Below, piece after piece: positions 2,764 through 39,981 of a DNA stretch of 64,000 nt. Position 1 is the stretch's first letter, and each line of letters starts with the position of its first letter. The notes beneath the pieces were generated by a model. It was not told where the DNA came from, made no database searches, and saw only the letters and a program-made list of their open reading frames with translations. A program made the translations under genes and the position numbers. This DNA comes from an uncultured Actinomycetes bacterium (lineage in GTDB: Bacteria; Actinomycetota; Acidimicrobiia; Acidimicrobiales; CADCTF01): assembly GCA_963731055.1 (NCBI GenBank), contig CAVSUD010000009.1, forward strand, positions 196,428-260,427, given 5' to 3'.

Positions 2764-2773
2764 CGCGGCACCT

Positions 2774-7490: not shown

Positions 7491-8327
7491 CCTCAGCGCG
7501 CCGAGGGCGAGCACCCGCTCGACGAGCTCGTCCCTGACACGCTCGTGCTTGGGCCGGAACGGCGTCCCCGGTCGCAGCCCCCACAGCGTCAGGTGGAGGA
7601 GCTGCACGAGAAGGGCGCCGCGCCAGAACCACGCCACGTCCTCGGCTGGGACCGCGGCTTCCACCGCGGCCCGCCCGCCGGGCAGGTCGACGAGGGTGAA
7701 CCAGAGGAAGGCCAGGTCCCACGACCGGGGGTACCAGGCCGTCCACTCCCAATCGATGAGCACGGCGGCGCCCGATGCCGATCGGAGGACGTTGCGGGCC
7801 GTGATGTCGCCGTGGCCGACGACGAGCGCCGGCGGATCGTCGGCGGCCTGCCGTCGCACCGCGTCGGCCACGGTGGCCTCGAGGCAGCCTTCGGTGACGG
7901 CCGTGCGAAGGCGTCGGTGGAGGTCGAAGCGGCGCAGGAAGGGCGCCGGAGGGCGGAACCCACGAAGGGCCAACGCCAACGCCACCAGTTCCGCCACGTC
8001 ACCATCGGCCGCGGTCAGCGGGAACTTCGGTCCGAAGGGCTCGCCGTCGATGGCCTCGTAACGCAGCGTGCGGGTGCGGTGGTCGGCGGCCAAGAGGCGG
8101 GCGTGGGGGACCGGCGGGGGATGGCGACGCAGAAGGTGGCCGACCCGCCGTTCGCGCTCGAAGGGCGAGTGGCGACGGCCGAGGTACACCCATCGGAGGC
8201 GCTCGTAGCGCTTCTCCACGGTCCGGCCGTCCTCGCTCCAGACGACCGTGCATCCGCTGCCGCTCACGGTCCGCACGCCGCTCTGAACGTAGCTGACCTG
8301 CGCCTCCGCGGACCGTCCGGCAGGCAC
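7482..8327 (-). CDS. phosphotransferase-family (APH/kinase-like) protein
   Basis: C-terminal 282 codons of ORF 7482..8903(-), with HGDITARNVL and VLIDWEWTAWYPRSWDLAFLW (APH Brenner and IDWE motifs). Start set at GTG 8327 because the upstream part of the ORF is antisense to smc. The last 2 codons and the TAA stop lie inside the IS right repeat. Confidence 0.65.
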   Translation of the reverse strand: MPAGRSAEAQVSYVQSGVRTVSGSGCTVVWSEDGRTVEKRYERLRWVYLGRRHSPFERERRVGHLLRRHPPPVPHARLLAADHRTRTLRYEAIDGEPFGPKFPLTAADGDVAELVALALALRGFRPPAPFLRRFDLHRRLRTAVTEGCLEATVADAVRRQAADDPPALVVGHGDITARNVLRSASGAAVLIDWEWTAWYPRSWDLAFLWFTLVDLPGGRAAVEAAVPAEDVAWFWRGALLVQLLHLTLWGLRPGTPFRPKHERVRDELVERVLALGALRGT

Positions 8328-8345
8328 CGGTAACCTCGGATCCCA

Positions 8346-11300: not shown

Positions 11301-11857
11301 CTGCAGGAGCGGCACGGCTTCCTCGAGGGGCAGCTCGAGGACGTGAAGACGACGCCGGCGGGACCTGTCCAAGGTGATCAAGGCGATCGACAGCGAGATC
11401 GTCGAGGTCTTCGCCGCCGCCTACGCCGACGTGGCCGAGAACTTCACGACGCTGTTCGAGATGCTCTTCCCCGGCGGCAGCGGCCGCCTGAAGCTCACCG
11501 ACCCCGACAACCTGCTCGAGACCGGCATCGAGGTCGAGGCCCGTCCGTCGGGCAAGAACGTCCGTAAGCTCTCGCTGCTCTCCGGCGGCGAGCGCTCGCT
11601 GACGGCGCTGGCGTTCCTCTTCGCCGTGTTCCGCAGCCGCCCCTCGCCCTTCTACCTGATGGACGAGGTCGAGGCCGCCCTCGACGACGTCAACCTCCAC
11701 CGGTTCCTCGACCTGGTCGAGGAGTTCCGGCGGGAGGCGCAGCTCGTCATCGTCAGCCACCAGAAGCGCACGATGGAGGCGGCCGACTGCCTCTACGGCG
11801 TGACCATGCAGCCCGGCGGGTCGAGTCGCGTCGATCAGCGAGAAGATCTCGGCGTAG
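8346..11857 (+). CDS. smc: chromosome segregation protein SMC (>=10 frameshifts as assembled)
   Basis: Walker [10 protein letters not shown] (ORF 8346..). Coiled-coil and hinge fragments occur in all three frames (ORFs 8767.., 9587.., 8346..). Signature [18 protein letters not shown] and Walker [13 protein letters not shown] are in ORF 11374... The natural end ...RVISEKISA-TAG (11855-11857) needs a 1-nt shift near 11832; without it the ORF reads through into the next gene. Confidence 0.9.
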
Positions 11858-11883
11858 CCGCCCGGACTCCTACACTTCCGGCC

Positions 11884-14060
11884 ATGAGGCGGAGTCGGCG
11901 GGTGGTCGGGATCGTGGCGGCGGCAGTGGCGGCGGCGAGCGCATCGCCGGCTGGAGCGGCCCACTGGCCGCAGTTCGGCGGCGACGCCGGCCGGTCGGGC
12001 GCGCAGCCCGTGCAGCAGAGCGGCGGAGCGATCACGTTCCTGTACTCCAAGACCGGCCTCGCCGACCGCGACGTCCGCACCTCGATCGTCACGACGGGCG
12101 GCCCGCGGGCGGCGCAACGCCTCGCCTACGGCTCCGAGGACGGCGTCGTCATCCTGCGCGTCCTCGTCAGCGGCGCCCCCGTCGGACCTCCCGGGGGCAT
12201 CGACCTCAGCGCCGACCCGTTCCCGTTCGGGAGTTCGGGCAGCTCGAGCTTCGTCAGCTCGTCCGGCGAGGAGAACCTGGGGCAGCTCTACTCCATCCAC
12301 AACGAGCTCTACGCCGGCGGCGTGTTCGGCCTCGAGCTGGCCCAGATCGACGAGACCACCGGCAACCGCTCCCGGGACGACCTCGCTCTGCCCGGCACCG
12401 ACGGGTACCGGATCCAGAGCTCGCCGCTGCTGACGCCCGACGACGGCAGCGGCGTCCGCAACCTGTTCTTCGTGGCCGTCCAGCGGGACGGGACGAACCA
12501 GCGCCTGTTCAAGGTGCCGATCACCAACGCCGGGTCGCCTTCCGCGAGCATCGGGGCGATCGTGGCCGGCCCGGACGCCAACGCCAACGCCGACGCCAGC
12601 CCGACCCTCGTCTACCTCCGCAACGCCGCCGGCACGCCGATGCCCTACATCGCCGTGTCCACCGACAGCGGGGTCGTCACCTTCGCGGCCGGCGACCTGA
12701 GCGCCGGGCCGGCCAGCATCGACGTCGGCGAGCCGGTGCGGACGCCGTCGGTGCCGGTCACCGCCAGCGGGGCGACCCCGGGTGCGCCCGGCAGCGGCGT
12801 CGCCACCGCCCCGGCCTTCTTCGCGGCCAGCAGCGGGCCGGCCAACACGACGCGGCTGCACCGCTTCGCGCAGGCCGGGAACAGCCAGGTGCTGACCCGG
12901 ATCTCGAGCTCGCCCGTCACGGGCACCGCGTCGAGCGGCCTCGCCCTGTCGACCGACGGTCAGCGGGCCGCCGTCGCCACCTCGAACAACCTCTACGGGT
13001 TCCGGACCGCCGACGTCTCCCTGGTCGCGAAGTTCAACGTCACGGACGACCTCGCGGCCGAGTCCACCGGGTTCAGCCGCACGGTGCCCGTGACCACCGG
13101 CGCCGTCGTGATCGCGGTGACCGACGGCGGGCGCCAACTGGCGCTGCAGCAGGATTCGCTCCAGCCCGTCGGCGACGGTCTGTTCACGCCCCCGCCGTCC
13201 GCGCTCGGGTCGGGGGCCTCCTTCGGCCAGCCGGCCATCAGCCGGGGCTTCCTCCAGCTCGCCACCGACCGGGGCCTGTTCGTCTACAGCCAGCCCCTCC
13301 CGCCGTCCGGGTACTGGCTGGCGGCGAGCGACGGCGGCATCTTCACGTACGGCAACGCCGAGTTCTTCGGCTCGACCGGCGACATCAAGCTGAACAAGCC
13401 GATCGTGACCATGGCGCCGACGCCCTCGCGCAACGGGTATTGGCTGGCGGCCACCGACGGCGGCATCTTCACCTTCGGCGACGCCGGGTTCTTCGGCTCG
13501 ACCGGCAGCCTGGCCCTCAACCGGCCGATCGTCGGCATGGCGCCGACCCGCAGCGGCCAGGGCTACTGGCTCGTCGCCTCCGACGGCGGCGTCTTCACCT
13601 TCGGCGACGCCACGTTCTTCGGCTCGACGGCGACATCAAGCTGAACCAGCCGATCGTCGGCATGGCCGCCACGCCCACCGGCGAGGGCTACTGGCTCGTG
13701 GCGTCCGACGGCGGCATCTTCACCTTCGGCGACGCCGAGTTCCACGGCTCGACCGGCGACATCAAGCTGAACAAGCCGATCGTCGGGATGGCGCCCGTGC
13801 CCGCCGGCGGCGGCTACTGGCTCGTCGCCTCCGACGGCGGCGTGTTCGCCTTCGGCGCCGCCGCGTTCTTCGGCTCCACCGGCGACCTCTCCCTGAACTC
13901 GCCGATCGTGGCCATCACCCCCAGCGCCACCGGGCAGGGCTACCTGTTCACGGCCGCCGACGGCGGGGTCTTCGCCTTCGGGGACGCGCCGTTCCTCGGT
14001 TCGGCGGCCGAGCTCGGGCCGCTCAACCGGCCCGTGGTGACGGTGGCGGCCAAGCCGTAG
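11884..14060 (+). CDS. secreted repeat protein: putative beta-propeller N-domain plus six 41-aa [10 protein letters not shown] repeats (1 frameshift near 13625)
   Basis: ATG 11884; signal peptide [38 protein letters not shown] resembles the start of PQQ-like propeller proteins. The C-terminus has 6 tandem copies of [39 protein letters not shown]. ORFs 11374..13644 and 13440..14060. Confidence 0.6.
13308..14057 (+). repeat. six in-frame 123-bp (41-aa) tandem repeats
   Basis: Repeat starts read [85 protein letters not shown] and [17 protein letters not shown]. Confidence 0.85.
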
Positions 14061-17087: not shown

Positions 17088-18446
<1,359 letters not shown>

Positions 18447-23952: not shown

Positions 23953-24724
23953 ATGGAGACCCTTCTCGTCGAGCGGGACGCCGGCGTCGTCACCGTCACC
24001 CTCGATCGTCCGGACAAGAAGAACGCGGCCAACGACACGATGTGGAACGAGCTCATCGAGGTCTTCACCGAGGTCGGCGACACCGACAGCGACCGCGTGC
24101 TGGTCGTCACCGGGGCCGGCGGGGCGTTCTGCAGCGGAGCCGATCTGAGCGCCGCGGACAGCCTCGCCCGCAACGGGCTGCGTCGGATGCGCCACATCGG
24201 GAGCGCCGCCCTCGCCCTCCACCAGCTGGCCAAGCCGACCATCGCCAAGGTCAACGGCGTCGCGGCCGGCGCCGGGTGCAACCTCGCCCTCGGGTGCGAT
24301 CTCGTCGTCGCCTCCGACACCGCCCGCTTCTCCGAGATCTTCGCCCGGCGAGGTCTCTCGCTCGACTTCGGCGGCTCGTGGTTGTTGCCCCGGCTCGTCG
24401 GGCTCCACAAGGCGAAGGAGCTGGCGTTCTTCGCCGAGGTGATCGACGCGGTCGAGGCCGAGCGGCTGGGGATCGTCGAATCGCGTCGTCCCGGCCGCCG
24501 AGCTGGACGGGTTCGTCGACGACTGGGCCCGCCGGCTGGCCGCCGGCCCGCCGTTGGCGCTGTCGATGACCAAGACGATGCTCAACAACGCGTTGATGGT
24601 GTCCATGGACCAGGCCCTCGAGGACGAGGCCCGTTCGCAGTCGGTGAACTTCGCCACCAAGGACTTCGGCGAGGCGATCGCGGCCTTCGTGGGCAAGCGG
24701 GACCCGGACTTCACGGGGAACTAG
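23953..24724 (+). CDS. enoyl-CoA hydratase/isomerase family protein (1 frameshift near 24480)
   Basis: VVTVTLDRPDKKNAAN, VLVVTGAGGAFCSGADL, AKVNGVAAGAGCNLALGCDLVVAS. The C-terminus NRVVPAAELDGFVDDWARRLAAGPPLALSMTK...FVGKRDPDFTGN is in the +1 frame. Confidence 0.85.
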
Positions 24725-25266
24725 CGGATCGTCCCGGTCGACCGCGATCGGGCCAGGTGCAGGAGCACGGCGGCCACCAACGCGATGGCACCGGCGCCGA
24801 CGGCCGCGACGACGAGATCGCGACCGAACGGCAGATCGGCCAAGGTCCCGAGGGCCAGCGCGGCGGCGTAGGCCACCACCACCGAGGCGCCCACGACGAG
24901 CCCACGCGGCGCGCCGCCCGGCACGACGGATCCGGCCGTCCGTAGCTCCGCGGCCCAGGTGATCAGCTCGGCGACGAGGAGGAGGCCGGCGGCCACAGCC
25001 GGCGTACGGGGGTCGAGGGCGGCGCCCCGGTCGTGAAGGGTCGCCACCAGCTCCGCGCCGAGGAGCGCGGCGGTCAGGGCCCCGGACGCCGGGAGCGCAG
25101 CGGTCACGCCGACGACCGCGGTCGCGACGGCGAGCGCGGCCAGGCCCTGCACGAGCGGGGCGAGGCGACCGGCGTCGAGCAACGGGACGACGGCGGTGGC
25201 CATCGCAGCCGCGACGGCACCGGCCCCGACGATCAGACGCGGACGTGCCGAGCGCGACGGCGCCAC
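24721..25266 (-). CDS. hypothetical polytopic membrane protein (last gene of the MoxR operon)
   Basis: Intact 181-aa Ala/Val/Leu-rich ORF with about 5 hydrophobic segments. Its start overlaps the DUF58 gene end. Confidence 0.5.
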   Translation of the reverse strand: MAPSRSARPRLIVGAGAVAAAMATAVVPLLDAGRLAPLVQGLAALAVATAVVGVTAALPASGALTAALLGAELVATLHDRGAALDPRTPAVAAGLLLVAELITWAAELRTAGSVVPGGAPRGLVVGASVVVAYAAALALGTLADLPFGRDLVVAAVGAGAIALVAAVLLHLARSRSTGTIR

Positions 25267-26454
25267 TGCTCCACCTCCTCGATGGCCAGGGGCAGCCCCG
25301 CCGGCGTGGTGGCCACGGCCACGGCGATGCCGAGGTGCTCGAGGCGAAGGCGTCGGGCGTCACGCTGGAGCGCGGCCAGCCGACGGCCGAGCCTCGGTCG
25401 CCGCCTCCAGGTGCGGCGCGGGGAGGGCGACGACCGCCACGTCGAAGCCCCGGGCTCGGAGGTCGAGCAGAGACTGGACGGCGGTGTCGTTGTCCAGGGG
25501 CGTGACGGCGAGGAGCAGCGCGCGGTGGCAGCGCGCCCAGCGGGATCCGCGTGACGCCGGCCCACGACGAGGTCACCAGCACCTCGGTGTCGAGGAGTCC
25601 TTCGACGACCCGGAGGAGGGCCCGTTGCCCCAGGCCGGGGGCGACCCAGCGCAGCTGCCCGCCGAAGGTGAGGAACCCGATCCGATCCCGTTGGGCGTGA
25701 GAAGCGGCGGCGACCGCGGCGAGGGCCCGCACCGACCGGTCGAGCGTGGCGGCCCGGTCGTGGCCGGACTCGCCGAACGTGTCGAGGAGCAGGACGACGT
25801 CGGCGCTGCGCTCCGGCCGGCGGTCGTTCACGAACAGCTCGCCGGGCGGACGGCGGGCCGACACCCGCCAGTTGACGGCACGGGCGCGGTCGCCGGCGGT
25901 GAAGGGACGGACGTCGGCGAACTCGATCCCATCGCCCCGGGCGCGGCTGGTGTGGTTCCCCACCCGACGCTGCAGCTCGGCCGCCGCCACGGCCCGACGA
26001 AGGGCCTGCGGTGACGGGTGGACGCGCAGCAGGAGGCGGGTGTCGTGAAGGGTCTCGCGCACGAAGAGGCGGAGCGGGTCGGCAGTGCGGACTCCGACCC
26101 GTCCGACGCGGAAGGCGCCCCAGCGCCGCGTCGTGACCGTGAGGCGGATGCCGCCTGCGAACGGCTCGGAGCCGGCGAGAGCCAGACCTCCGGGTAGCGG
26201 CACGCAGACCTCCGCGCCCGCCGGGGCGGTCACGTCGATGGTCGCCTCCTCGCCCTCGACGATGCGATCGGCGACGAGGGCGACGGAGGGTTCACCCGGC
26301 GCCGCGCCGCGCCAGGCCAGTCCGACCACCAGGAAGAGGCCGAAGGGGGCGGCGAGGAGGGCCGGCTCCGGGCGACCGAGCACGAGCGCGGCGACGAGGC
26401 CGATGATCGTGAGCGTGGCGTAGGCCCCGACCCGAGCGGTCGGCCAGGTGGTGG

Positions 26455-26458
<4 letters not shown>
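25233..26458 (-). CDS. DUF58 domain protein (vWA-like; >=2 frameshifts as assembled)
   Basis: Within ORF 24251..26890(-): MTTTWPTARVGAYATLTIIGLVAAL.. (2 TM) and GDGIEFADVRPFTAGDRARAVNWRVSARRPPGELFVNDRRPERSADVVLLLDTFG. The C-terminus is in ORF 25233..25565(-). ATG 26458 overlaps the moxR stop. Confidence 0.75.
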
Positions 26459-27452
<994 letters not shown>

Positions 27453-27456
<4 letters not shown>

Positions 27457-27983
27457 AGGGCCTCCACGGCGGCCAGCACGGCAGCCAGGGTCTCAGGGGT
27501 CGGACCGGCGGCGCGCCGGTCGCTCGGTCGGGGGCGGTCCGGTCGGAGGTGCGACCAGGCCGGCTCGCCGAGGAGCTCGGCGGCGCGCGGGTCGTCGATC
27601 GTCCGCCCGTGGCGCGCCTGCAGCCGCTCGCCGGCGGCGTCCCGCAGTTGCGGTCGGAGCCGGAAGTGGAAGGCGCCGTCGGTCTCGGTGGCGCTTCGCA
27701 TCAGGTGGTCGAGCGCCGTCGTGGGCCCGCGATCACGGGGCCCCGCCCGCCGCCGGAGGAACGGGACGGGGGGAAGTCGGCGGCGCCGGTGGAAGGGCGA
27801 GTCGGGGGGCGGGGCCTCCGACGTGGTCGTGAAGCGAAGCACGGCGCGGAGGGCGAGGAGGCCGAGGAGCATGACGTAGGCCCGGAAACCCAGGACCCGT
27901 CGCCGATCCTCGAGCAACAGCAGCGGCACCATCGCCGCGGTGAGCGCGACCACGACGACGATCGTGCTCCGGACGGTCCTCAC
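27453..27983 (-). CDS. hypothetical membrane protein (MoxR operon)
   Basis: GTG 27983 (4-nt overlap with the upstream gene) to stop 27453 (4-nt overlap with moxR). Two N-terminal TM helices (STIVVVVALTAAMVPLLLL, AYVMLLGLLALRAVL). No family recognised. Confidence 0.5.
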
Positions 27984-28909
27984 GGTGTCCTGGCGGCGGC
28001 ACCCGACGCGACCGTCGCCCGCAGGACATGGCCGAGCGCTGCGACCACCTGCGTCCGCTCCTCCTCGGTCGTCGGGCGATGGCCGAAGCGGGCCCGCTCG
28101 TAGGCGAGGGTGAGGGCCGCCGAACTCTCGACGAACGCGACGGATCCGCGGTGGACGGCCCGGATCTGTCGGAGCCACTCGTGCGGGGTCGCGGCCGAGG
28201 GGCGCGCGGCCGGGGTCGAGGCCAGGCTCCGCTCGAAGAGGGCGTACGCCAGCTGCACGGCCCGCCGGGGGTCGGGTTCGGTGGTCACGAGGGCCAACGC
28301 GGCGTCGGCGTCGTCGACCGGCACCGACTGCAAGAGCTCGGCCACCGCTCGTTCGTGTTCCCCGGTCGGATCGTCGGCGGCGGCGCTCGCCTCGTCGTCG
28401 GCGGCCGCCGACGTGCGCCTGCGGTTCCGGAGCCGCACGGTCCAGACGGCCAGCCCCGCGAGGGCGACGGTGGCGACGGCCAGGGAGGCCGTCGGCGAGG
28501 CCCGAGGCAGGCGCGACGGCTGGTCGGCCGGGGCGTCCCGGTCGGTGACCGAAGCGGCGGTCGGGGGCGGCTTCGACCCGTCGCGCGCCGGCTCGCGCCT
28601 CGAGGCGAGCACGGACATGCCGACCAGGAGGGCGGCGACCACGAGGTAGGGGATCCACTGCTGCTTCGGGGTCGGGCGCGGCGACGGCCGTCCGTCGGGC
28701 CACAGGGCCCAGGCGGCGAGGGCGCCACAGGCGATGAGGGCGACGGCCACCACGGCCAGGCCGATCGTCCTCGCCGTCGACGCCGTCTCGAAGGAGGCCG
28801 CCGTCGCGCCGGAGCTCCCGCGGCTGGCGACCACCACGGCGCCGAGCGCCACCGTCACCCCGGCCACCGCGGCCACGGCGCCTCGACGGGAGGAGGCGCC
28901 GGCCGGCAT
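27980..28909 (-). CDS. DUF4129-like membrane protein (first gene of the MoxR operon)
   Basis: Intact 309-aa ORF with several TM helices. C-terminal TPHEWLRQI...LTLAYERARFGHRP resembles the DUF4129 signature that accompanies MoxR/DUF58 clusters. Confidence 0.5.
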   Translation of the reverse strand: MPAGASSRRGAVAAVAGVTVALGAVVVASRGSSGATAASFETASTARTIGLAVVAVALIACGALAAWALWPDGRPSPRPTPKQQWIPYLVVAALLVGMSVLASRREPARDGSKPPPTAASVTDRDAPADQPSRLPRASPTASLAVATVALAGLAVWTVRLRNRRRTSAAADDEASAAADDPTGEHERAVAELLQSVPVDDADAALALVTTEPDPRRAVQLAYALFERSLASTPAARPSAATPHEWLRQIRAVHRGSVAFVESSAALTLAYERARFGHRPTTEEERTQVVAALGHVLRATVASGAAARTP

Positions 28910-30575: not shown

Positions 30576-31793
30576 GCCCGGGGGCCGGGGGAAGCGCGCT
30601 CGCCTGTGCCGCCGCCCTTTCGCAGCTGCCCGGGTGTGGACGCGCCCGCCTCCACGCCGTGCTGGAGGTGGCCGGTGGCGACCCGGTGCGCGGCCTGGAG
30701 TGCTGTCTCTGGCGCGGGTGCAACCCTCGACCTCGACCTCGACCTTCGATCGAGGCTCGGACCTGGGGGTGGTGAGCTCATGGAGCAGTGGCGGCGGGCC
30801 GCCGGCCGTGTCGACCTCCCCGCCATCGACCGTCGGGCCGCCGAGGTCGGCGCGTCCCTGTGGCTCCGAGGCGATCCCCGATACCCCGAGGCGCTCGTGG
30901 AGGATCCCGACCCCCCGGCCGTGCTCTTCGCCGCCGGGGACGCCGGTGCGTTGCGGACGTCCACCGGCGACCGGCGTCCTGCGGTGGCCGTCGTCGGCAC
31001 CCGCCGGTGCACCTCCTACGGCCTCGACGTGGCCCGGGAGCTCGGCCGCGACCTCGCCGCGGCCGGCGTGGCCGTGGTCTCGGGCCTCGCGTTGGGCATC
31101 GACGGCGCGGCCCACGAGGGCGCGCTGGCGGCGGGAAGGGAGGCGGCGCCGGTGGGGGTCGTCGGGAGCGGGCTCGACGTCGTCTACCCGGCCCGGCACC
31201 GGTCGCTGTGGCGGCGGGTGGCGGAGGCCGGCCTGTTGCTGTCCGAGGCACCTCCGGGGGCGGAGCCGGAGCCGTGGCGCTTCCCCCGGCGAAACCGCAT
31301 CCTGGCCGGGCTGGCCGACGTGGTCGTGGTCGTGGAGTCCCACGCCTCGGGCGGCTCGCTCTCGACCGTCCGCGCCGCCATCGACCGGGGGGTGCAGGTG
31401 ATGGCCGTCCCCGGATCGGTCCGTAGCCCCTCCTCGTCGGGCACCAACCGCCTGCTGGCCGACGGCGTGGCCCCGGTGACGGAGGTGGGGGACGTGCTCG
31501 TGGCACTGTCGCTCGAGGGGGCGGTGCCGGCGCTCGAGGGGGCGGTGCCGGGCCGACACCGGTCCGACGGCGGGGCGGTAGCGGGGGAGGCCGACCCGCT
31601 CCTCGAGGCCGTCGACTGGACGCCGACGGCGACCGAGGAGGTGCTCCGGCGCACGGGCCTGTCCGTCGGCGAGGCGGCGACGGCCCTGACGAGGCTGGAG
31701 GTCCGGGGCCTGGTCCGGCGGCGCAACGGGTGGTGGGAACGGGTGGTGCCGCCTGCTGCGCCCACGGACCGGGGTTACACTGCCACCACGTAG
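30572..31793 (+). CDS. dprA: DNA-processing protein DprA (about 2 frameshifts near 30630-30700)
   Basis: N-terminus MSPGAGGSALACAAALSQLPG.. (frame of ORF 29558..). The body is in ORF 30606..31793: AVVGTRRCTSYGLDVARELGRDLAAAGVAVVSGLALGIDGAAHEGAL, VVGSGLDVVYPARH, FPRRNRILAGLADVVVVVES..GGSLSTV. Confidence 0.85.
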
Positions 31794-31838
31794 GCGGCTC
31801 CCGGCGGCGAGGGGTCGCCGAGGGCGCGAAGGGACCCC

Positions 31839-32620
31839 GTGGATCAGGACGACACCGACGCAATCCAACAGCTGTGGGTGGAGTACAAGGCCACCGGCTC
31901 GCGGGACGCGCGTGACCGCCTGATCGTCCACTACTCGCCGTTGGTCAAGTACGTCGCCGGCCGCGTGTCCGTCGGGCTGCCGCAGAACATCGAGCAGGCC
32001 GACCTGGTGAGCTACGGCGTCTTCGGGCTCATCGACGCCATCGACAAGTTCGATCTCGAGCGCCAGATCAAGTTCGAGACCTACGCCATCGCCCGCATCA
32101 AGGGCGCCATCATCGACGAGCTCCGCAGCATCGACTGGGTGCCCCGCTCGGTGCGGGCCAAGGCCCGTTCGGTCGAGAAGGCCTACTCCACCCTCGAGGC
32201 CAGCCTCCTGCGGACACCCACCGACGCCGAGATCGCCCACGAGATGGGCATCAGCGAGGGCGACCTCCAGACGATCTTCAACCAGATCTCCTTCGTCGGT
32301 CTCGTGGCCCTCGACGAGATGCTCTCGGGGGGGAGCGCGGCGAGTCCTCGACCCTCGGCGACACCATCCCGGACAAGGGCGAGGGACCGGTGGCGGCCTA
32401 CGAGGTCGAGGAGATGAAGCAGATCCTCGCCGGCGCCATCAGCCGCCTCGGCGACCGGGAGAAACTGGTCCTGATGCTCTATTACTACGAAGGCCTGACC
32501 CTCGCCGAGATCGGCGAGGTGCTCGGGGTCACCGAGAGCCGGGTGTGCCAGATCCACACCAAGGCCGTGATCCAGCTGCGGTCCCGCATGGCCGAGCCCG
32601 AGCGGGAGACGGCGAGCTAG
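31839..32620 (+). CDS. whiG: WhiG/FliA-family (sigma-28 type) RNA polymerase sigma factor (1 frameshift near 32340)
   Basis: [79 protein letters not shown] closely follows the Streptomyces WhiG sequence as I recall it. Region 4, [33 protein letters not shown], is in ORF 32390..32620. Confidence 0.85.
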
Positions 32621-33217
32621 ATGGCGAACGGCCCGCGCCGCAACGACCCGCAGCCGGGGTCGTCGCCCCAGGAGCGCATGGACAACGATCGACGAGAAGC
32701 ACGAGACGGAGGAGACCCGACGATGACGGCGGCGACCGGGCCTGGGCCCAAGGAGCGGGGCAAGCCCCGGGAGACCGAGACCGCGACCGACGCGGGCCCC
32801 GGACGAACCTCACGGGCGGCCCCGCCGCTGGGTGCCATCATCGCTTCGCTCCTGGTCGGCCTCCTCCTCGGCGCCGCCGGAGCGACCTTCCTGGCCAACC
32901 AGGACAGCAGCCCGTTCGCGGGCGTGATCGATTCCGGCCGCTACCAAGCCGTGATCCTCAGCAACGACAAGGTGTACTTCGGCAAGCTCGACCGGGTCAG
33001 CGACGACTACTACCGCCTCGACCAGGCCTTCTTCCTCCGGGAGACGCGCGAGAACGCCGACGCCGAGCCCGTCCGGGCGCTGCTGCCCGTCAACCGCGAG
33101 ATCCACGCGCCGGACAACACCATGTTGATCCGTGACGACGAGGTCGTGCTCGTGGAGAACCTCGCCAAGGACTCGCCGATCCTCAGCGAGATCCGGCGCC
33201 AGCTCGGCGGCAAATAG
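32621..33217 (+). CDS. hypothetical single-pass membrane protein, translationally abutted to whiG
   Basis: Intact 198-aa ORF. Its ATG immediately follows the whiG TAG. It has a charged, disordered N-terminal ~65 aa, one TM helix (LGAIIASLLVGLLLGAAGATFL) and a ~110-aa C-terminal domain (YQAVILSNDKVYFGKLD..YYRLDQAFFL). Confidence 0.6.
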   Translation: MANGPRRNDPQPGSSPQERMDNDRREARDGGDPTMTAATGPGPKERGKPRETETATDAGPGRTSRAAPPLGAIIASLLVGLLLGAAGATFLANQDSSPFAGVIDSGRYQAVILSNDKVYFGKLDRVSDDYYRLDQAFFLRETRENADAEPVRALLPVNREIHAPDNTMLIRDDEVVLVENLAKDSPILSEIRRQLGGK

Positions 33218-33228
33218 TCCTGAAAACG

Positions 33229-33255
33229 TCAGTGACTACGTCGCGTAGTCACTGA
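33229..33255 (+). terminator. perfect 12-bp palindrome with 3-nt loop (terminator of the whiG unit or an operator)
   Basis: TCAGTGACTACG-TCG-CGTAGTCACTGA lies 12 nt after the stop at 33215-33217. No U-tail. Unusually AT-rich for this genome. Confidence 0.4.
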
Positions 33256-33277
33256 ACAGCGTACTGTGGCCCAATCC

Positions 33278-33306
33278 TTGCGGTGGGGCATTCCGGGCCG
33301 TATGGT
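33278..33306 (+). promoter_or_regulatory. candidate sigma-70-type promoter of the fibre gene
   Basis: TTGCGG (33278-33283), 17-nt spacer, TATGGT (33301-33306; TANNNT). RBS GGGAGG at 33335-33340 and ATG at 33349. Pattern match only. Confidence 0.3.
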
Positions 33307-33348
33307 CTATCTGGGCACGGGGTGTGCTCTGAGCGGGAGGCGCATCGC

Positions 33349-36300
33349 ATGACGTCGGCAGGCAAATGGGTTCTCGGACTCTTGATCCTGGTTTTAGGAG
33401 CGGTCTTCGTGGCAAGGACCGTGTCTTCGGAGCCCGGTTCCGAGGCGACGATCAAGCAGTTCCAGGCCGAGAGCGCAGCCAACAGCTCGAAGCTGACGGA
33501 TGAGGCCAAGGCCAAGGCCGCCGCCGATGCGGCCGCCAAGAAGCTGGCCGGCACCGTCGCCGGCGACGTGGCCTGCAAGAAGGCCTGCATCGAGGTCAAC
33601 GAGGTCGCCAACGACGCCGTGACCACGGCCAAGCTCGCCGCCGGCTCCGTCACCCTTTCCAAGCTCGCCTTCGAGGTGCCCAACCTCAACGAGCTCGAGA
33701 ACGAGATCAGCGCCCGCAAGGCCGCCGAGGCCGCCACGAAGTCCGCCCAGGCCGAGGCCGCCGCCTCCGGCGCGAAGAACGACGCCGCCATCACCGCGGC
33801 CTCCGCCAACGGCATCACCGCCGAGGCCGCCGCCCGCTCGGCCGCCGACGCCGACCTGACCCAGAAGGTCGCCGCCGCCGACGCCGACCTCCTCGGCAAG
33901 CTCAACAAGGAGTTGACGGATCGCGGCGCCGCCGACGATGTCCTCCAGGGCAAGCTCAACACCGAGATCGCCGACCGCGCCGGCGCCATCACCAACCTCC
34001 GCGGCGAGCTGGCCAACCCCAACCAGGTCGGCGCCCCGATCATCAAGATCAACAACAACGAGATCGTCGCCGACGCCGTCACGAGCGACAAGCTGCTCGA
34101 CGGCACGATCGTCACCGCCGACCTGGCGAACGTGTTGATCACGAACGAGAAGCTCGCCCCCGACTCGATCACCACCGACAAGATCAAGGACGGCGAGGTC
34201 AAGACCTCCGACATCGCCGACAGCAACGTCACGACCGGCAAGATCGCCGATCAGAACGTGACGACGGCGAAGATCGCCAACAGCAACGTGACCACGGGCA
34301 AGATCGCCGATCAGAACGTGACGACGGCGAAGATCGCCGACAGCAACGTGACCACGGGCAAGATCGCGGATCAGAACGTGACGACGGCGAAGATCGCCGA
34401 CAGCAACGTGATCACGGGCAAGATCGCCGATCAGAACGTGACGACGGCGAAGCTCGCCGACGGCAGCGTGACGACTGCGAAGCTCGCCGACGGCAGCGTG
34501 ACCACCGCCAAGATCGCGAACCAGAACGTCACGACCGCCAAGATCGCCGACCAGAACGTCACGACCGCCAAGATCGCCGACCAGAACGTGACGACGGCGA
34601 AGATCGCCGATAGCAACGTGACCACGGGCAAGATCGTGGATCAGAACGTGACGACGGCGAAGCTCGCCGACGCCAACGTGACGACGGTGAAGATCGCCGA
34701 CGGGAACGTCACGCTCGACAAGCTCGACGCCAACTCGGTCGACAGCTCCAAGATCATCAACGGCACCATCGCCACGGTCGACCTCGGTGATGGCGTGGTG
34801 ACCCTGGCCAAGCTGGCGCCCGCGTCGGTCGACGCCTCCAAGATCGTCGCCGGGTCGATCACGACCGCCAACCTCGGCGACGGCATCGTCACGCTGGCGA
34901 AGCTCGGCGCCAACAGCGTCGACACCACAAAGGTCGTCGACGAGTCGCTCACGACCGACGACATCAAGAACGGTGAAGTCAAGACGCTCGATCTGGCGAA
35001 CCTGAACGTGACGACGGCCAAGCTCGCCAACGGTAGCGCCACCCTCCTGAAGGTTGCAGCGAGCTCGGTCGACAGCGCCAGGATCGTGGACGGGTCCATC
35101 GCCACGGCGGACATCGATGACCTCCAGGTGACGCTCGGAAGCTCGGGCCGAATTCGGTGAACGCCTCGAAGATCGTCGATGGCAGCATCACCACCGCTGA
35201 CCTCGGCGATGCCCAGGTCACGAAGCTGAAGCTCGCCGGCGACTCGGTCGACTCCACGAAGATCGTGAACGGTTCGATCGGCACCGCCGACCTCGGCGAC
35301 GCGGAGATCACCTTCGAGAAGCTGGCCGGCGGCTCCGTCCGGGGCGGTGCCGACACCGGTCCGAACAACATTCAGGACGGCTCGATCACGGAGGACGATC
35401 TGTCTCCGACGGCGATCTCGAACAACCTTGGCGCCGGGTCATTGGACGGGGCGAAGCTCAAGAACGAGTCGGTCAAGGGCGACGGGGCCGGCAGCGGTCC
35501 CAAGGGCCAGATCGCGCTCGACACGATTGGCAGCGCCAACATTCTCGACGGCCAGGTCAAGAGCGCAGACCTCGACCACACCGCCGGCACGGAGGCGGTC
35601 GACTCCGGAGCGATCCGCAATGGGGCCGTCACCTCCGCCAAGATCCTCGACGGCACGATCACCGGCGCCGACATCGCCGGCACCACGATCACCGCTGACA
35701 ACCTGGCGGATGGTGCGGTCACGACGGCGAAGATCCTCGACGGCACCATCACCTCGGCGGATCTGCAGTCCACGACTGGCGGTCCCGGCGCCGTCGCCAC
35801 CGTCAACCTCCAGGACGACGCCGTAACGGCGCCGAAGATCGCCGCCGACGCCGTGGGCGCTTCGGAGATCGCCACCGGCGCCGTCACGACGGCCGAGATC
35901 GCGGACGGCACCATCAAGACCGAGGATCTCCTCGATGGGGCCGTGACGACCGACAAGCAGACGGCGAATGCCGCCTCGGCCTCGGTGCCCCCTGCGACCC
36001 TGGTGCTCAACAGCGGGACCCTGAGCGGGACACCCGCCACGGCGAGCCTCGTCCTCACGGCCGGCTCGCACAAGGTGCTCGTCACCGGGCAGACCGTGGC
36101 GACCTGCACCTGCCCGAACCCGGGGGATTCGGCCGTCATCATCTGGCGGGCGACGGACACCGACTCGGTGCCGGCGACGACGCAGGTCGGCCCGCTCTCG
36201 ACGATCACACTGACGAACGCCGCTCCGTCCGCCGTCCTTCCGGTCTCCGGCCTCGCCGTCCTCCCGTCGGCCACCGTCGGTGCGCACCAGTACAGCCTCG

Positions 36301-36380
36301 AGGTCACGGCCGCCTTCAACGGGGCAACCGCCGTCGACCTCGTCGGCTCCGGGATCACCGCCGTCGACCTCGGTCGCTAG
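33349..36380 (+). CDS. membrane-anchored decapeptide-repeat fibre-like surface protein, ~1010 aa (1 frameshift near 35137)
   Basis: ORFs 33283..35160 and 35157..36380 join if one A is restored in GGAAGCTC, which restores the repeat register (VTLGKLGPNSVNASKIVDG). Layout: N-terminal TM helix KWVLGLLILVLGAVFVA, an Ala/Glu/Lys-rich coiled-coil-like stalk, ~60 repeats of x-x-[VI]-T-[TS]-x-K-[IL]-x-D, and a ~135-aa non-repeat C-terminal domain. Confidence 0.75.
34063..35960 (+). repeat. in-frame 30-nt (decapeptide) repeat region, about 63 units
   Basis: Strict 10-residue period from IVADAVTSDKLLDG to LLDGAVTTDKQT. The core at 34215-34700 consists of near-identical 60-bp and 30-bp DNA units encoding DSNVTTGKIA/DQNVTTAKIA. 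Confidence 0.9.
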
Positions 36381-36448
36381 CGGCCCTGCCGCACCCAGCC
36401 TCACGATCGAGGGCGTCGGCGGGAGCCGGCGCCCTCGGCTCGTCCGGG

Positions 36449-36497
36449 GTTCTGGGCGCATTGCTGCACCCAGGGGGTGCACAAATGCGCCCAGAAC
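36449..36497 (+). terminator. long stem-loop downstream of the fibre gene (probable terminator)
   Basis: GTTCTGGGCGCATT-GC-TGCACCC-AGG-GGGTGCA-CA-AATGCGCCCAGAAC: 14 bp, a 2x2 internal loop, 7 bp and a 3-nt loop. Starts 69 nt after the stop at 36378-36380. No U-tail. Confidence 0.5.
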
Positions 36498-36608
36498 GGG
36501 AATGGCGCCGGCGGGCGTTGCTCCACCGACGTCCCGGCGCTACCTTCGTCACTGACGTACCCGCTCGCTTCCCCGTGAGCCGTTTCTCGTGTTGCTCCGG
36601 GGGCTGTC

Positions 36609-38235
36609 GTGCGTCGCTTCACCGTCGTTCTGGTCGTGCTCGTCGGGCTGTCGGCGGCGCCGGCCGGCGCAGTTGTCGCTCAGACGCGGAATCCGGTCAC
36701 GTATCGGCCGCCGGTCGATGCGCCGGTGGTCGACGGGTTCCGGCCGCCGGCGTCGGACTACGGCGCCGGCAACCGGGGGGTCGACTACGCCACCACGGAG
36801 GGGCAGGCGCTGACGGCGGCGGCCGCCGGCGAGGTCGTGTTCGCCGGGCCGGTCGGCACGGCGAGACACGTCGTCGTGCTGCACGACGACGGGGTCCGGA
36901 CGTCCTACAGCTTCCTGGCCACCACGGCGGTCCGCCGGGGTGACCACGTCGAGCAGGGGGACGTGGTCGGCACGGCGGCGGCGGGACGCGGCGCACTTCG
37001 GGGCGCGGGTCGGCGGCGTGTACGTCGACCCGCTCGTACTGCTCGGCCAACGCCCGGGCGGCGGTGGGCTCCGCGCGCGGCTGGTGCCGGATCCGGAACC
37101 GGACCGGCCGCTGAGCGAGGCGGTCGAGCGGCGCGGGCTGGTCGAGACGTTGCGAGATCTGGCCCGCACCAGCATCGGGTCGGGGGCGGCGTGGCTGCGG
37201 GACCGGGCGGTCGAAACCGCGGAGCGAAAGGTGGCCTTGGCCCGGGTGCTGGCCGACACCGCGATCGATCTGTCCGTGCCGCTCCCGGTGTACCTGGCCG
37301 CCGCGGCCCTGCGGTGGCAGGAGGAGCAGACCGACTGCACGCCGGAGGGCGCGCCCGTGGCGGCCCGAGCACCGCAACGTCGGATCGTGGTGCTGGTCGG
37401 CGGGCTCGGCTCCTCGACCGGCCGCACGGCGGTGCTCGACGTGGACATCGCCGCCCTGGGGTACGACCCCGCCGATGTCCACCAGTTCTCCTACACCGGA
37501 GCGGCGACGCCGTACGCACCTCGGGACACCCTGGGCGACATCGGCGCCAGCGGGGCCCGTCTCGCGGCGCAGATCGACGACCTGCAACGGGCCCACCCCG
37601 ACGCCGCGGTCGACGTGATAGCCCATTCCCAGGGCGGCCTCGTCGCCCGCAGCGCCATCACCGTCCACCATGCCGCGCCGGCGACGGTGGTGACGATGGC
37701 GACGCCCCATCACGGCGCCGACCTCGCCACGGCGGGGGTGGCCATCGACGGCTCCATGGCCGGCCACCTGCTCCTCGAGGTCGCCGGCGGCACCCTCGGC
37801 GAGCGCGGGATCGACCCGACCGCCACGTCGATCCGGCAGATGAGCGAGGGCAGCGACTTCCTCCGTCACCTGCCCGATCAGGGCTGGTCGTCCGACACCC
37901 GGGTGGTGTCGTTGGCCGCGCGGAACGACCCCGTCGTCCCGGCCCACCAGAGCCGTTTGGCGGGCGCCGACAACGTGGTGGTCACCACCAACGGGGGGAT
38001 CGGTGGCAACGACCACAAGCTGCTGCCCGGCTCGCCACCGACGACGACCGAGGTGGCCCGGGCCCTCGCCGGGCAGGCGCCGACCTGCCGGAGCCTGCCC
38101 GACACGTTGTTGGACGAGGTCGACAGCCGCCGCATCAGCGCGGTCCACGACACGCTCGGCGCGGCGTTGGCGGCGGGCGGCCTGTACGTGGACGCGCGAG
38201 CGCGGACCGCCGGCCTCGAAGCGATCCGGCGCTGA
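36609..38235 (+). CDS. secreted fusion: degenerate LytM (M23) domain plus alpha/beta-hydrolase (lipase/esterase-like) domain (1 frameshift near 36975)
   Basis: Signal peptide MRRFTVVLVVLVGLSAAPAGAVVA. M23 core NRGVDYATTEGQALTAAAAGEVVFAG..VVVLHDDGVRTSYSFL..GDHVEQGDVVG..AAHFGARVGGVYVDP (ORFs 36609.., 36940..). Then RIVVLVGGLGSS, nucleophile elbow VIAHSQGGLVARS, and TMATPHHGADLA. Confidence 0.7.
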
Positions 38236-38282
38236 TGCGCGATGAGGTGGACGCACGACCCGCCACTACGCTCGCTCCCCCG

Positions 38283-39981
38283 ATGGGTCGGACGAGGCGC
38301 TGGGGCGCCGCCCTCGGGGGGTTCCTCGTCGCGCTCGAGCGCGGCGACGGGTGGGCTCGCGGCCCCGGCCGCCGCCGCCGCCGCCGCCGCCGAACCCGAC
38401 GACCCGTGGCTCGTCCGGGAGGCGCGGTTCGAGCCCCTCGACGCCGCTCCGCTCGGCGTCGACGGCGTGGGCGAGTACCGGGGGAGCATCCGCATCACCC
38501 GCAGCGGCGCCGGGGTCGGTGTCGTCAACGCCCTGCCGCTCGACGACTACCTGCGGGGCATCAGCGAGGTGCCGTCGAACTGGCCCATCGAAGCGCAGAA
38601 GGCCCAGGCCATCGCCGCCCGCACGTACGCCCTCCACGAGGTGGGGCGAGAGGTCAACGCCGCGTACAAGCAGGCCGGTGCGGACATCTGCGCCACGGAC
38701 GCCTGCCAGGTGTACGCCGGCCTGGCCAAGGAGCGACGACCTGGCAGCGAGCGCTGGAGTGCTGCGGTCGAGTCGACGACGGGCCAGGTGCTCGTCTACC
38801 AGGGTGCCCCGATCGTCGCCAAGTACTCGAGCTCGAACGGGGGCCAGACCGTCGGCGGCGGGCAGCCGTACCTGCGGGCCACCCCCGATCCGGACGACGC
38901 GTACAGCCCCCTCCACCAGTGGCGATCGACGTTCCCCCTCGCCGACGTCGCCCGGGTCGTCGGCCTGGCCGCCGAGCCGACCGCGCTCCGGACGGAGGGT
39001 GACGTCATCGTCGCCACCTCCCTCGATCCCGACGGCAACCCGGTGGAGCAGCGCCTGCCGGCGACCGACTTCCGGAGTCGCATCAACTCGGCCCTGGTCG
39101 CCCCGGCGGGCCTGCCCGTGGCGCTGCCTTCCACGCGCTTCGCGGCCGTGGCCGTGGACGGGCTCGTCGTCATCGACGGACGCGGATGGGGCCACGGCAT
39201 CGGTCTCAGCCAGTACGGCGCCCTCGGCAAGGCCATCCGCGGACTGAAGGCGGCCGACATCCTGGCCGCCTACTACTCGGGTCTCCGCCCGGTCGCCGTC
39301 CCCGCCGACCAGCTCCCGCCCCAGGTCAGGGTGGCCGTGGCCCTCGATCGCGCCGAGGCTTGGGTGCACAGCGCCGGCGGTCGGTTCCGGGTCGTCGACG
39401 CCGACGGACGGGTCGTCGCCCACCGGGCGACCGGCGCGTGGCGGGCCACGCCGGCCCCGAACGGACGCATCCGACTCGTCCCTCCCACAGATGAGGCCGG
39501 CGCCCCGGGTGCCGCCCTCACGACGGCCGAGCCCGCGGCCGCCCACGTCCGCCAAGCCGTCGCCCTCCGCATCGAGCTGCAGGGTCCGGCCGCCCTCACC
39601 CGCATCACGCTCACCAACCCGGCGGGCGCCACGACCGAGCTCGACCCGTCCAAGCTGCGGGCGAGCGGTCCTCTCACCGTCCGCCTCGGTGCGGCCACGA
39701 CGTCGGAGCCGGGCCCGTATCGCGTCGACTTCGAACGTGACGCCGGCGCCGGCCGGGTCGTCACCGTCCCGGTTGTCATCGACGTGGCGCCGGCCGAGGC
39801 GAAGGCGCCGGCGGCGGTGGCGAACCCCGGCGGGACCGGCCGGGACCGCCCGGCGGCGCTCGTCACCGCGGGAACCGGTTCGGTCCGGGCCCTGCAGGGC
39901 CTGGCCACCGTGCTCCTGCTCGCCGTGGTTGCCGCCGGCGCCGCCTGGATGGGGCGAAGGCCGGGCATCGAACTACACTGA
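38283..39981 (+). CDS. SpoIID/LytB-domain protein with C-terminal membrane anchor (1 frameshift near 38335)
   Basis: [18 protein letters not shown] (frame of ORF 36609..) joins ORF 38242..39981. That ORF has [62 protein letters not shown] and [16 protein letters not shown]-terminal TM helix [18 protein letters not shown]. Confidence 0.8.
38368..38391 (+). repeat. (GCC)8 trinucleotide repeat encoding poly-Ala
   Basis: Eight perfect GCC units encode the Ala run in ..[16 protein letters not shown] just after the predicted signal peptide of the SpoIID-domain protein. Confidence 0.9.

Follow-up and report, generated by a model that had tools for sequence, protein, structure and literature searches.

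Mosaic adhesive trimer (MAT) fibres have been described in Bdellovibrio, and some of them end in TNF-like tips (Caulton et al. 2024, PMC10769870). Here we analysed a locus that may encode a fibre of a comparable plan in another phylum. It lies on a stretch of DNA of 64 kb (hereafter the window) from an uncultured member of the Acidimicrobiales. Five genes, all on the + strand, occupy the module interval at 31839-39981, between dprA and rpsB. They encode a WhiG-type sigma factor (whiG), a single-pass membrane protein, a repeat-rich fibre protein, a secreted fusion of an M23 domain with a serine hydrolase, and a SpoIID/LytB-domain protein. The original prediction, made from the sequence of the window, had proposed that these genes form one module, possibly driven by WhiG, that installs the fibre and remodels the wall around it. 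While domain models and transmembrane (TM) predictions confirmed all five genes as described, neither their co-occurrence in related loci nor their promoters supported the proposed single module.

Like the MAT fibres, the fibre protein of the window combines a conserved cell-proximal N-terminal module with a long shaft of repeats and a C-terminal tip that can be swapped, and adhesion is its likely role. Unlike them, it belongs to an actinobacterial, presumably monoderm host, is anchored by a TM helix and a long helix instead of the MAT N-terminal domain, and has no S74 chaperone domain detectable with Pfam. Furthermore, it is encoded only once, behind whiG at a fixed position among housekeeping genes, and its trimeric state is a prediction. 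The protein also resembles phage tail fibres (PHROG 28766 and 892; T7 gp17-type and cyanophage short tail fibres), with which it shares homologous shaft repeats, a mosaic of shaft and tip, and a tip fold similar to that of phage receptor-binding domains. In contrast to these, the window gene appears to be cellular, with no virion genes nearby, and a TM anchor and stalk replace the tail-attachment domain.

The remaining genes recall other described systems. Like the sigma factor of the Streptomyces WhiG2-RsiG-cyclic di-GMP (c-di-GMP) switch, the window sigma passes the WhiG model and keeps the contact residues, and its gene lies in the dprA...rpsB interval, as does whiG in Streptomyces. In contrast to the Streptomyces locus, the window sigma gene is followed by a coupled membrane-protein gene, and an RsiG motif, whiH/whiI, pilus genes and flagellar genes are missing from the window. 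With its gene placed directly after the sigma gene and coupled to it, and with a single-pass, N-in topology and an external domain, the membrane protein is reminiscent of the RseA/RsiW anti-sigma factors. However, its cytoplasmic part is unconserved and disordered, and the sigma belongs to the sigma-28 family and not to the extracytoplasmic function (ECF) type. As in EnvC, NlpD, ActS and SpoIIQ, the M23 fold has lost zinc ligands. Like SpoIID/LytB wall remodellers, the SpoIID-domain protein scores above the domain cut-off and retains the Glu, and both window enzymes are extracytoplasmic. Unlike the degenerate M23 (dLytM) activators, the window dLytM domain is fused to a DUF676/PGAP1-like serine esterase that is apparently active, judged by its motifs. 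In contrast to known dLytM/SpoIID systems, there is no sporulation context, and the partner varies between SpoIID and, in outgroups, a PQQ beta-propeller.

Results

Gene linkage across related loci

We compared about 20 related loci, all from uncultured Acidimicrobiales/Actinomycetota, and mapped the module genes on each of them by tblastn; module proteins were analysed after frame repair. Metagenome-assembled genomes with the locus include JBKJKM01, DATLED01, DATLGL01, CAVVPZ01, DATAKR01 and GCA_037024455.1. The sigma gene lay directly upstream of the membrane-protein gene in all 17 lineages with upstream DNA, and the fibre gene lay downstream of the membrane-protein gene in all 16 lineages with downstream DNA. 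Gene order was also the same around the two fibre orthologues that diverge most (36-39% identity). That is, the sigma, membrane-protein and fibre genes form a trio that is strictly linked in this clade.

The genes for the wall enzymes occur independently of this trio. In three outgroup loci (L014-L016) the fusion gene lies upstream of rpsB, and none of these loci encodes the membrane protein, the fibre or SpoIID. SpoIID is present in seven fibre-bearing lineages and missing from three. In one further locus (L025, 3246-4921), the M23 gene has no detectable hydrolase domain and SpoIID follows directly, so the fusion is not fixed even inside the fibre clade. The original prediction had held that the genes belong together; fusion without fibre, fibre without SpoIID and M23 without hydrolase argue against this for the wall enzymes, while the linkage holds for the trio.

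The outgroups also bear on the history of the locus. In L015 the order is dprA-xerC-sigma-fusion-PQQ propeller-rpsB; L016 has the same order plus a YVTN-repeat protein after the sigma, and L014 differs from L015 in having no sigma. The sigma factor and the M23 protein had been taken for ancestral residents, in agreement with their presence in the dprA...rpsB interval of L015 and L016 and with that of the M23 protein in L014. The fibre, which is not found in L014-L016, is an addition as proposed, and it arrived with the membrane protein. The hydrolase partner had been regarded as a further addition, but a fused degenerate M23/esterase already exists in these outgroups, which have no fibre. SpoIID was rightly called an addition, albeit a patchy one (seven fibre-bearing lineages with and three without it).

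Based on these results, we favour a mosaic origin of the locus and give this reading a probability of about one half. On this view, whiG and the dLytM-esterase operon would both be ancestral, and the membrane-protein and fibre genes would be an insertion specific to the clade, yielding three units and not one machine. The two inserted genes would have been acquired jointly by the ancestor of a single clade of the Acidimicrobiales, at a site flanked by whiG and the dLytM gene. The first unit would consist of a WhiG2-type sigma coupled to a single-pass membrane protein with an external Sm-like barrel. The second would be a monocistronic fibre gene with a housekeeping-type promoter, encoding a type II (N-in) membrane-anchored fibre. 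This fibre would carry a membrane-proximal CxxxC, a phage-tail-fibre shaft and a TNF/C1q-like tip, with shaft and tip swapped between lineages, and its helix of about 110 residues, about 16 nm in length if it forms a coiled coil, would be long enough to span the wall. The third unit would be the dLytM-serine esterase operon with or without SpoIID, an ancestral neighbour of rpsB in gene order that may serve general wall remodelling.

Some differences between clade and outgroups concern other genes. A xerC gene lies between dprA and whiG in the L014-L016 region and is missing from that place (31793-31839 in the window) in all fibre-clade loci. In L016, a different secreted repeat protein, a YVTN beta-propeller (6431-8524), is encoded between whiG and the dLytM gene, and this interval may be a hotspot for genes of surface proteins.

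The sigma factor and the membrane protein

WhiG-type sigma factors have been re-used in various Actinomycetota for flagella, pili, sporulation and c-di-GMP turnover. The window whiG gene (31839-32620, + strand) encodes a sigma-28-family protein of about 260 aa and of the WhiG2 type, and its frame is broken at a G7 run (32327-32333). The protein contains the Sigma70 regions r2, r3 and r4 (Pfam). It matched the NCBIfam WhiG equivalog NF004935 over its full length with 378 bits (cut-off 343) and FliA_WhiG TIGR02479 with 275 bits (cut-off 189.6). Sigma identity was 87-97% within the fibre clade, a conservation comparable to that of RpsB (82-95% identity across the clade), and 71-72% to the outgroups.

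In Streptomyces WhiG, a Lys/Gly/Arg set in sigma-2 provides the c-di-GMP contacts and a Thr-Leu..Glu..Leu set in sigma-4 the RsiG contacts, and WhiG2, unlike WhiG1, conserves these residues (PMC13595943). When compared by eye and without a phylogeny, the window sigma retains both the sigma-2 Lys/Gly/Arg (in LVKYVAGRV) and the sigma-4 Thr-Leu..Glu..Leu residues. Since these WhiG2 contact residues are retained, the protein is most likely a WhiG2 under RsiG/c-di-GMP control. The RsiG motif E-x3-S-x2-R-x3-Q-x3-D was absent from the six-frame translation of the 64-kb window, and the papers on the WhiG/RsiG switch (PMC7005675, PMC8325347, PMC13595943) do not cover Acidimicrobiia, nor do the two that deal with its evolution include this locus.

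The membrane-protein gene (32621-33217, + strand) encodes 198 aa, and its ATG directly follows the sigma TAG. Stop and start codons abut or overlap in 13 of 13 loci (as TAGATG, TAAATG, TGATG or TAGTG, with one 3-nt gap), and by this arrangement the gene appears to be translationally coupled to whiG. A single TM helix is predicted at residues 70-92 (32828-32897, + strand). Basic residues are found on its N-terminal side and acidic residues on its C-terminal side; because the basic residues precede and the acidic residues follow the helix, the C-terminal domain should be extracytoplasmic according to the positive-inside rule.

Neither Pfam nor NCBIfam yielded a match for the membrane protein. 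In an alignment of 24 homologues (A1), the N-terminus is variable, of low complexity, rich in Asp, Arg, Pro and Gly and between 0 and about 110 residues long, with zero conserved columns N-terminal of the TM helix, and the C-terminal domain of about 95 residues is nearly invariant. An AlphaFold2 (AF2) model of the C-terminal domain reached a predicted local distance difference test score (pLDDT) of 86-94 in most blocks. The best Foldseek match was 3by7 (E=7e-5, TM score 0.72), accompanied by many Sm/LSm chains. According to the model, the domain is an Sm/LSm-type small beta-barrel of the five-strand bent type. Ring formation or RNA binding by an extracytoplasmic Sm-like barrel is implausible.

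A word-indexed search detected 146 homologues of the membrane protein, all of them in metagenome-assembled genomes of uncultured Acidimicrobiales/Actinomycetota, and the protein occurs in nine species representatives among 185,579 reference species. An exhaustive profile search with the family gave 2385 cluster representatives at E≤1e-3, only 15 of them at E≤1e-30. Two distant family members (L017, L018) lie in unrelated contexts, with neither a sigma nor a fibre gene. The combination of a TM helix with an Sm-like ectodomain constitutes a large unnamed family in varied genomic contexts for which Pfam has no model. An attempt to name this wider family failed, as the cluster members that were looked up were all unnamed metagenome proteins. 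A scan of viral contigs found no copy of the membrane protein.

The membrane protein is most likely the membrane partner of the fibre, either as its base or as an assembly factor, a partnership that we infer. Alternatively, the protein could be a membrane-anchored anti-sigma factor or sensor for WhiG: its ectodomain would sense the fibre or the envelope, its tail would hold WhiG, and the targets of WhiG would lie elsewhere. A single-pass gene adjacent to a sigma gene is the classic anti-sigma layout known from ECF sigma/anti-sigma pairs. The position of the gene immediately 3' of the sigma, its coupling in 13 of 13 loci, the single-pass N-in topology with an external, sensor-like domain and the unusual conservation of the sigma (87-97%) would all fit such a role. 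However, the binding interface of an anti-sigma factor should be conserved, and the cytoplasmic N-terminus, being of low complexity, variable length and essentially without conservation beside a near-invariant sigma, is not. In addition, the outgroup WhiG genes, although 71-72% identical, have no such membrane-protein neighbour, the retained RsiG/c-di-GMP contact residues suggest the usual control by RsiG, and the wider family of 2385 representatives has no sigma gene in the two distant loci examined. We consider an anti-sigma role rather unlikely. A bolder version of it, in which WhiG2 was rewired to surface adhesion and the membrane protein is a new sigma-28 partner (anti-sigma factor or sensor) that reads the fibre via its Sm-like ectodomain and links c-di-GMP, WhiG and attachment, we regard as doubtful.

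Transcription signals

The upstream regions of the fibre gene have diverged between loci, save for the motif TTGC[GAC][GAC]-N17/18-TAnnnT. In the window it reads TTGCGG-N17-TATGGT (33278-33306, + strand), a putative promoter of the housekeeping type. We defined the motif on 11 loci and held out five further lineages, all of which proved positive. All 16 lineages have exactly one copy of it, whose -10 element ends about 40-72 nt before the start codon. In 2000 dinucleotide-preserving shuffles, the motif appeared in a mean of 0.04 of the 11 regions and in two at most. Its layout matches the actinobacterial housekeeping-sigma consensus (TTGACN/TTGCGA, 17-18 nt, TAnnnT).

Upstream of whiG, a -10-like hexamer TACACT (TAnnnT; 31776-31781, + strand) lies inside the 3' end of dprA and is a candidate promoter element. 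A TA[CTG][AG]CT hexamer, usually TACACT, is found 11-64 nt upstream of the sigma start in all 15 loci, outgroups L015 and L016 included. The whiG leader (31782-31838) could fold into a G+C-rich stem-loop, which is also possible in L001, L005, L006, L009, L011 and L021 with differing sequences. As a conserved RNA element this hairpin was dropped, since the leaders measure about 11-64 nt and those of L007 and L026 have no hairpin.

For the dLytM operon, visual inspection revealed a housekeeping-type promoter candidate, TTGCTC-N17-TACCTT (36518-36546, + strand). The corresponding site in L002 and L004 reads TTGTCG-N17-TACGTT, so that three loci including the window were compared and this promoter was tested less than that of the fibre gene.

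Potential hairpins lie at the borders of the genes. Just 3' of the membrane-protein gene, the perfect hairpin CAGTGACTACG-TCG-CGTAGTCACTG (33230-33254, + strand) is a possible terminator without a T-run; it was not seen in the other loci compared. A long G+C-rich, terminator-like hairpin follows the fibre gene (36449-36497, + strand), and at this place another strong hairpin, GAGGCCCCCGG...CCGGGGGCCTC, is found in L002 and L004. The dLytM leader contains a terminator-like stem-loop, GCTCGCTTCCCCGTGAGC (36563-36580, + strand), about 30 nt before the start codon. Its counterpart in L002 and L004 is GCTCACTTCCCCCTGAGC, which gives the consensus GCTC(G/A)CTTCCCC(G/C)TGAGC, and Rfam has no match for it. 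Taken together, these signals point to three putative transcription units, each with a housekeeping-type promoter and with hairpins between them.

We also searched for promoters of the WhiG type, whose motif is TAAA-N15/16-GCCGA(TAA), also written TAAA-N16-GCCGATAA. An exact search for TAAA-N14-17-CCGATAA found none in the window. A scan of the window and eight loci with ≤2 mismatches gave two weak matches, neither of them conserved. Denis et al. 2026 published a relaxed WhiG consensus (-35 NT[C/A]AN, 16-nt spacer, -10 GCCGA), and its application to every module intergenic region again gave two matches, neither conserved. The WhiG regulon check suggested by the original prediction, run at the locus, found no conserved WhiG/sigma-28 promoter upstream of the module genes. 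Since the window sigma is very WhiG-like, and WhiG1 and WhiG2 homologues recognise similar, FliA-like promoters (Denis et al. 2026), a radically different promoter specificity of the window sigma is unlikely.

The wall enzymes

The dLytM-hydrolase gene (36609-38235, + strand) encodes a secreted protein of about 542 aa that joins an M23 domain to a DUF676/DUF7379/PGAP1-like serine hydrolase; an indel lies near 36985. Pfam matches were M23 PF01551 with 57.9 bits (above the cut-off), DUF676 PF05057 with 38.7 bits (cut-off 20.3) and PF07819 with 28.6 bits (cut-off 24.3). The M23 zinc site is degenerate: Asn replaces the first ligand His (GNRG[VI]DY; GNRGVDY in the window), and Gly or Ala replaces the first His of HxH (xLHF). 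Among the 12 loci scanned, the motifs could be located in 8-10, and these, the outgroup L014 among them, show the degeneracy. In the hydrolase domain the triad is intact, with AHSQGG, D441 and H470 invariant in three orthologues, along with two conserved Cys, and the nucleophile motif was located in 10 of the 12 scanned loci. The fusion protein hence combines a dLytM domain with a secreted serine esterase, which is apparently active by its motifs.

The fusion is widespread in Acidimicrobiales, with 804 matches, the best 120 of which carry M23 and hydrolase-type Pfam domains save for two truncated entries. We found no prior description of a dLytM/serine esterase fusion, though no dedicated literature search was run, and the locus contains no amidase gene as a possible dLytM partner. 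The Mycobacterium tuberculosis gene Rv2891, a neighbour of rpsB, is an uncharacterised M23-domain gene; this supports an old association of M23 and rpsB within the phylum.

The SpoIID/LytB gene (38283-39981, + strand) encodes a C-terminal TM helix (39889-39955) and, in another frame owing to an indel in a G6 run (38316-38321), a signal peptide. Its start is probably the ATG at 38283, which encodes the signal peptide in the other frame, and not position 38242; the orthologues carry signal peptides. The protein scored 168 bits against TIGR02669 (cut-off 83.3) and 86.8 bits against PF08486. Its match to the sporulation equivalog TIGR02870 (127) was below the cut-off of 235, and it is therefore not SpoIID proper. 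The GISEVP motif is present with its Glu, presumably the catalytic residue of SpoIID. In L014 (11644-12480), L015 (11671-12813) and L016 (12131-12931), a PQQ_2 beta-propeller gene comes after the dLytM-hydrolase gene, overlapping the fusion in L014 and L015, and holds the position of SpoIID in the window.

dLytM proteins such as EnvC and NlpD, together with SpoIID, are established wall remodellers or activators. This fits the reading of the original prediction, that all five genes form one module, possibly driven by WhiG. In such a module, the dLytM-hydrolase and SpoIID would open and remodel the wall for threading of the fibre. It would have parallels in flagella, pili and secretion systems, which possess lytic enzymes of their own. 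It would also account for the identical gene order in each fibre-bearing locus long enough to show it, and for the extracytoplasmic nature of all four proteins encoded downstream, which carry a signal peptide or TM helix and conserved Cys pairs. However, L014-L016 carry the fusion upstream of rpsB without a fibre, three of ten fibre-bearing lineages have no SpoIID, and L025 has no hydrolase domain. Furthermore, the locus has three separate housekeeping-type promoters with hairpins between the units, and neither the strict consensus nor the published relaxed one detected a promoter of the WhiG type. We consider the single WhiG-driven installation module, which these data do not support, unlikely.

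The fibre protein

The fibre gene (33349-36380, + strand) encodes about 1010 aa after repair of an indel in the 35140-35160 region. In the protein, an N-terminal TM anchor and a C-K-K-x-C motif are followed by a helix of about 110 residues; the rest consists of the repeat shaft, some 660 residues long, and a jelly-roll tip at the C-terminus. Orthologues share the N-terminal module with the TM helix, the invariant C-K-K-x-C, the segment SVTLSKLAFEVPNLNELENEI and the long Ala-rich helix. Their alignment (A2) contains 57 invariant columns, 56 of which fall at residues 14-240; the remaining one, H908, belongs to the C-terminal tip. The shafts are mosaic between orthologues, with different repeat types, and some of the C-terminal tips differ too. 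The window shaft is dominated by the unit SNVTTGKIADQNVTTAKIAD, which recurs with a period of 60 bp (20 aa) in 8.4 copies at 34213-34713.

Among the PHROG tail-fibre families, the shaft matched phrog_28766 (E=1e-83), phrog_892 (E=6e-61) and further members. Its repeat is shared with thousands of proteins, many of which have T7 tail-fibre, collar or Mtd_N domains (PF03906, PF07484, PF18454). Bdellovibrio proteins are among these relatives, and one of them, P0174, has an almost identical IADQNVTTAKIADSNVTT repeat. Pfam models gave zero matches to the fibre protein itself, including PF03906 and the S74 chaperone domain. A scan of viral contigs did not find the N-terminal anchor/stalk module. Because this module is not in viral contigs and phage genes are not nearby, the fibre appears to be a cellular protein built from tail-fibre blocks. 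The G+C content of the fibre gene is 0.63-0.68 (33500-35500), compared with 0.72-0.76, and its AT skew is positive, up to +0.42. Both values fit the Ala/Thr/Lys/Asn-rich repeats, and a foreign origin of the shaft is possible.

In the AF2 monomer, a single helix (residues 113-222) and a beta-sandwich (890-1010) were predicted with pLDDT mostly at 72-91. Residues 226-888 had a pLDDT of about 35 and no regular strands in a model based on a shallow alignment of 13 sequences. Owing to its low confidence the shaft model was dropped for the fold search, for which the tip alone was usable. At fold level, the tip resembled the TNF-superfamily ligands TL1A, 4-1BBL, TRAIL and TNF in the PDB (TM score 0.4-0.48), as well as the phage receptor-binding domains 8ke9, 9k09 and lambda gpJ. 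A viral structure library returned C1q/TNF-like and tail-fibre proteins.

A lone helix of 16 nm and a TNF-like head both argue for an oligomer, most simply a trimer as in phage fibres and Bdellovibrio MAT adhesins. The modelled fibre is most likely a homotrimer, and its most likely role is that of an adhesin or ligand-binding fibre produced constitutively.

A monomeric alternative is a pentapeptide-repeat beta-solenoid rod (Rfr fold), which would provide the envelope with a rigid spacer or a scaffold. The nearest solved structures by sequence are the designed consensus pentapeptide-repeat solenoids 4yei and 4yc5 (E about 1e-6), with which the 10/20-residue repeat is in register. NCBIfam gave weak matches to HetL, Qnr and PipB2, and some relatives of the fibre have Pfam Pentapeptide_4. 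However, the Pfam pentapeptide models did not match the window protein, and the NCBIfam matches of 19-36 bits were far under the cut-offs of 240-354. Matches to phage tail-fibre families were much stronger. No solenoid emerged for the shaft in the AF2 model (pLDDT about 35 with a shallow alignment), and the long single helix with the TNF-like tip points to an oligomer. We therefore consider a solenoid rod very unlikely.

Gene neighbourhood and assembly quality

Across 29-46 kb of the window the gene order on the + strand is comM, dprA, sigma, membrane protein, fibre, M23/hydrolase fusion, SpoIID, rpsB, tsf, pyrH, frr, cdsA and dxr. The remainder of the 64 kb is housekeeping in nature and includes rsmD, coaD, plsX, acpP, rnc, fpg, an insertion sequence (IS) element, smc, ftsY, ffh and rimM, as well as a MoxR cluster, rseP, ispG, proS, rimP, nusA, infB, rbfA, truB, rpsO and pnp. 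As the original prediction had stated, the 64 kb contain no flagellar or sporulation gene; among the other genes of the window there are no pilus or chemotaxis genes either. Gene identifications across the window revealed no phage genes near the fibre locus, and an Rfam scan of the whole window found no family at threshold.

G+C content in the window is 70-76%, and the run of genes on the + strand was recognised by the analysis of G+C at third codon positions and by translation. All identified genes from comM (29 kb) to pnp (64 kb) lie on the + strand. The five genes are thus co-oriented, as had been noted, but since the whole neighbourhood is co-oriented this carries no weight as a sign of a module. 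Near the locus, only one sizeable group of genes runs in the other direction, a cluster just upstream of comM (24724-28759, - strand) that encodes a MoxR AAA+ ATPase (AAA_3) together with a DUF58 and a DUF4129 protein. An IS element with an intact-looking DDE_Tnp_1_4 transposase reading frame (E=1e-53) lies between fpg and smc (5938-7287, + strand).

Frame-breaking indels affect four of the five module genes: whiG in its G7 run, the fibre gene, the M23 gene and spoIID in its G6 run. The same kind of break is found in tsf (about 41615), smc (8334-13635), ffh (17092-18430), ftsY and plsX (2465-3753). Indels are frequent throughout the window, typically in G/C homopolymer runs and also within essential genes, and the assembly looks like uncorrected long-read data. 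In other assemblies the orthologues of the module genes have intact frames. Because homopolymer-run indels also break essential genes and the orthologues are intact, we interpret the breaks in the module genes as assembly errors and not as pseudogenes. The indels make gene calls based on open reading frames unreliable in this window.

A decaying or foreign locus, with pseudogenes or with the fibre as a remnant of a prophage or tailocin, would agree with four of five genes being out of frame, with the lower G+C content (0.63-0.68) and strong AT skew of the fibre gene and with the homology of its shaft to phage tail fibres, but it is hardly credible given a chromosomal position that is identical in 16 lineages, intact orthologues elsewhere and an N-terminal anchor/stalk not found in viral contigs. 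Both of its forms were rejected, the pseudogene because the indels lie in homopolymer runs and the essential genes tsf, ffh and smc are broken likewise, and the prophage because phage genes are not nearby and the chromosomal position is fixed.

Discussion

Our analysis favours three units of different age over one machine, yet several points weigh against this mosaic. Strict gene order in the clade, with the dLytM operon directly after the fibre gene, would also be expected of a functional module. If the membrane protein serves the fibre only, its coupling to whiG is unexplained. WhiG, for whose promoters our scans covered the window and related loci, could still act here indirectly or via an atypical promoter. 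The promoters were assigned from conserved consensus-like motifs rather than from mapped transcription starts, and an E. coli-type promoter scanner, which is too strict for this organism, returned 0 matches. As for the fibre, we infer its trimeric state, its surface exposure and its role as an adhesin. Its tip matches other structures at fold level only (TM score 0.4-0.48), and a shallow alignment (13 sequences) of a repetitive protein, instead of obligate oligomerisation, could explain why AF2 modelled the shaft with low confidence.

Comparative genomics nevertheless speaks against the attractive reading of the locus as one module, and it spares deletion experiments that would have been misdirected. 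The fibre is chromosomally fixed and combines phage tail-fibre blocks with a TM stalk in a host presumed to be monoderm. With it, the concept of the Bdellovibrio-type mosaic fibre reaches another phylum and another mode of anchoring. The strictly linked trio of sigma factor, membrane protein and fibre offers an entry point to the biology of WhiG in an uncultured clade of the Acidimicrobiales.

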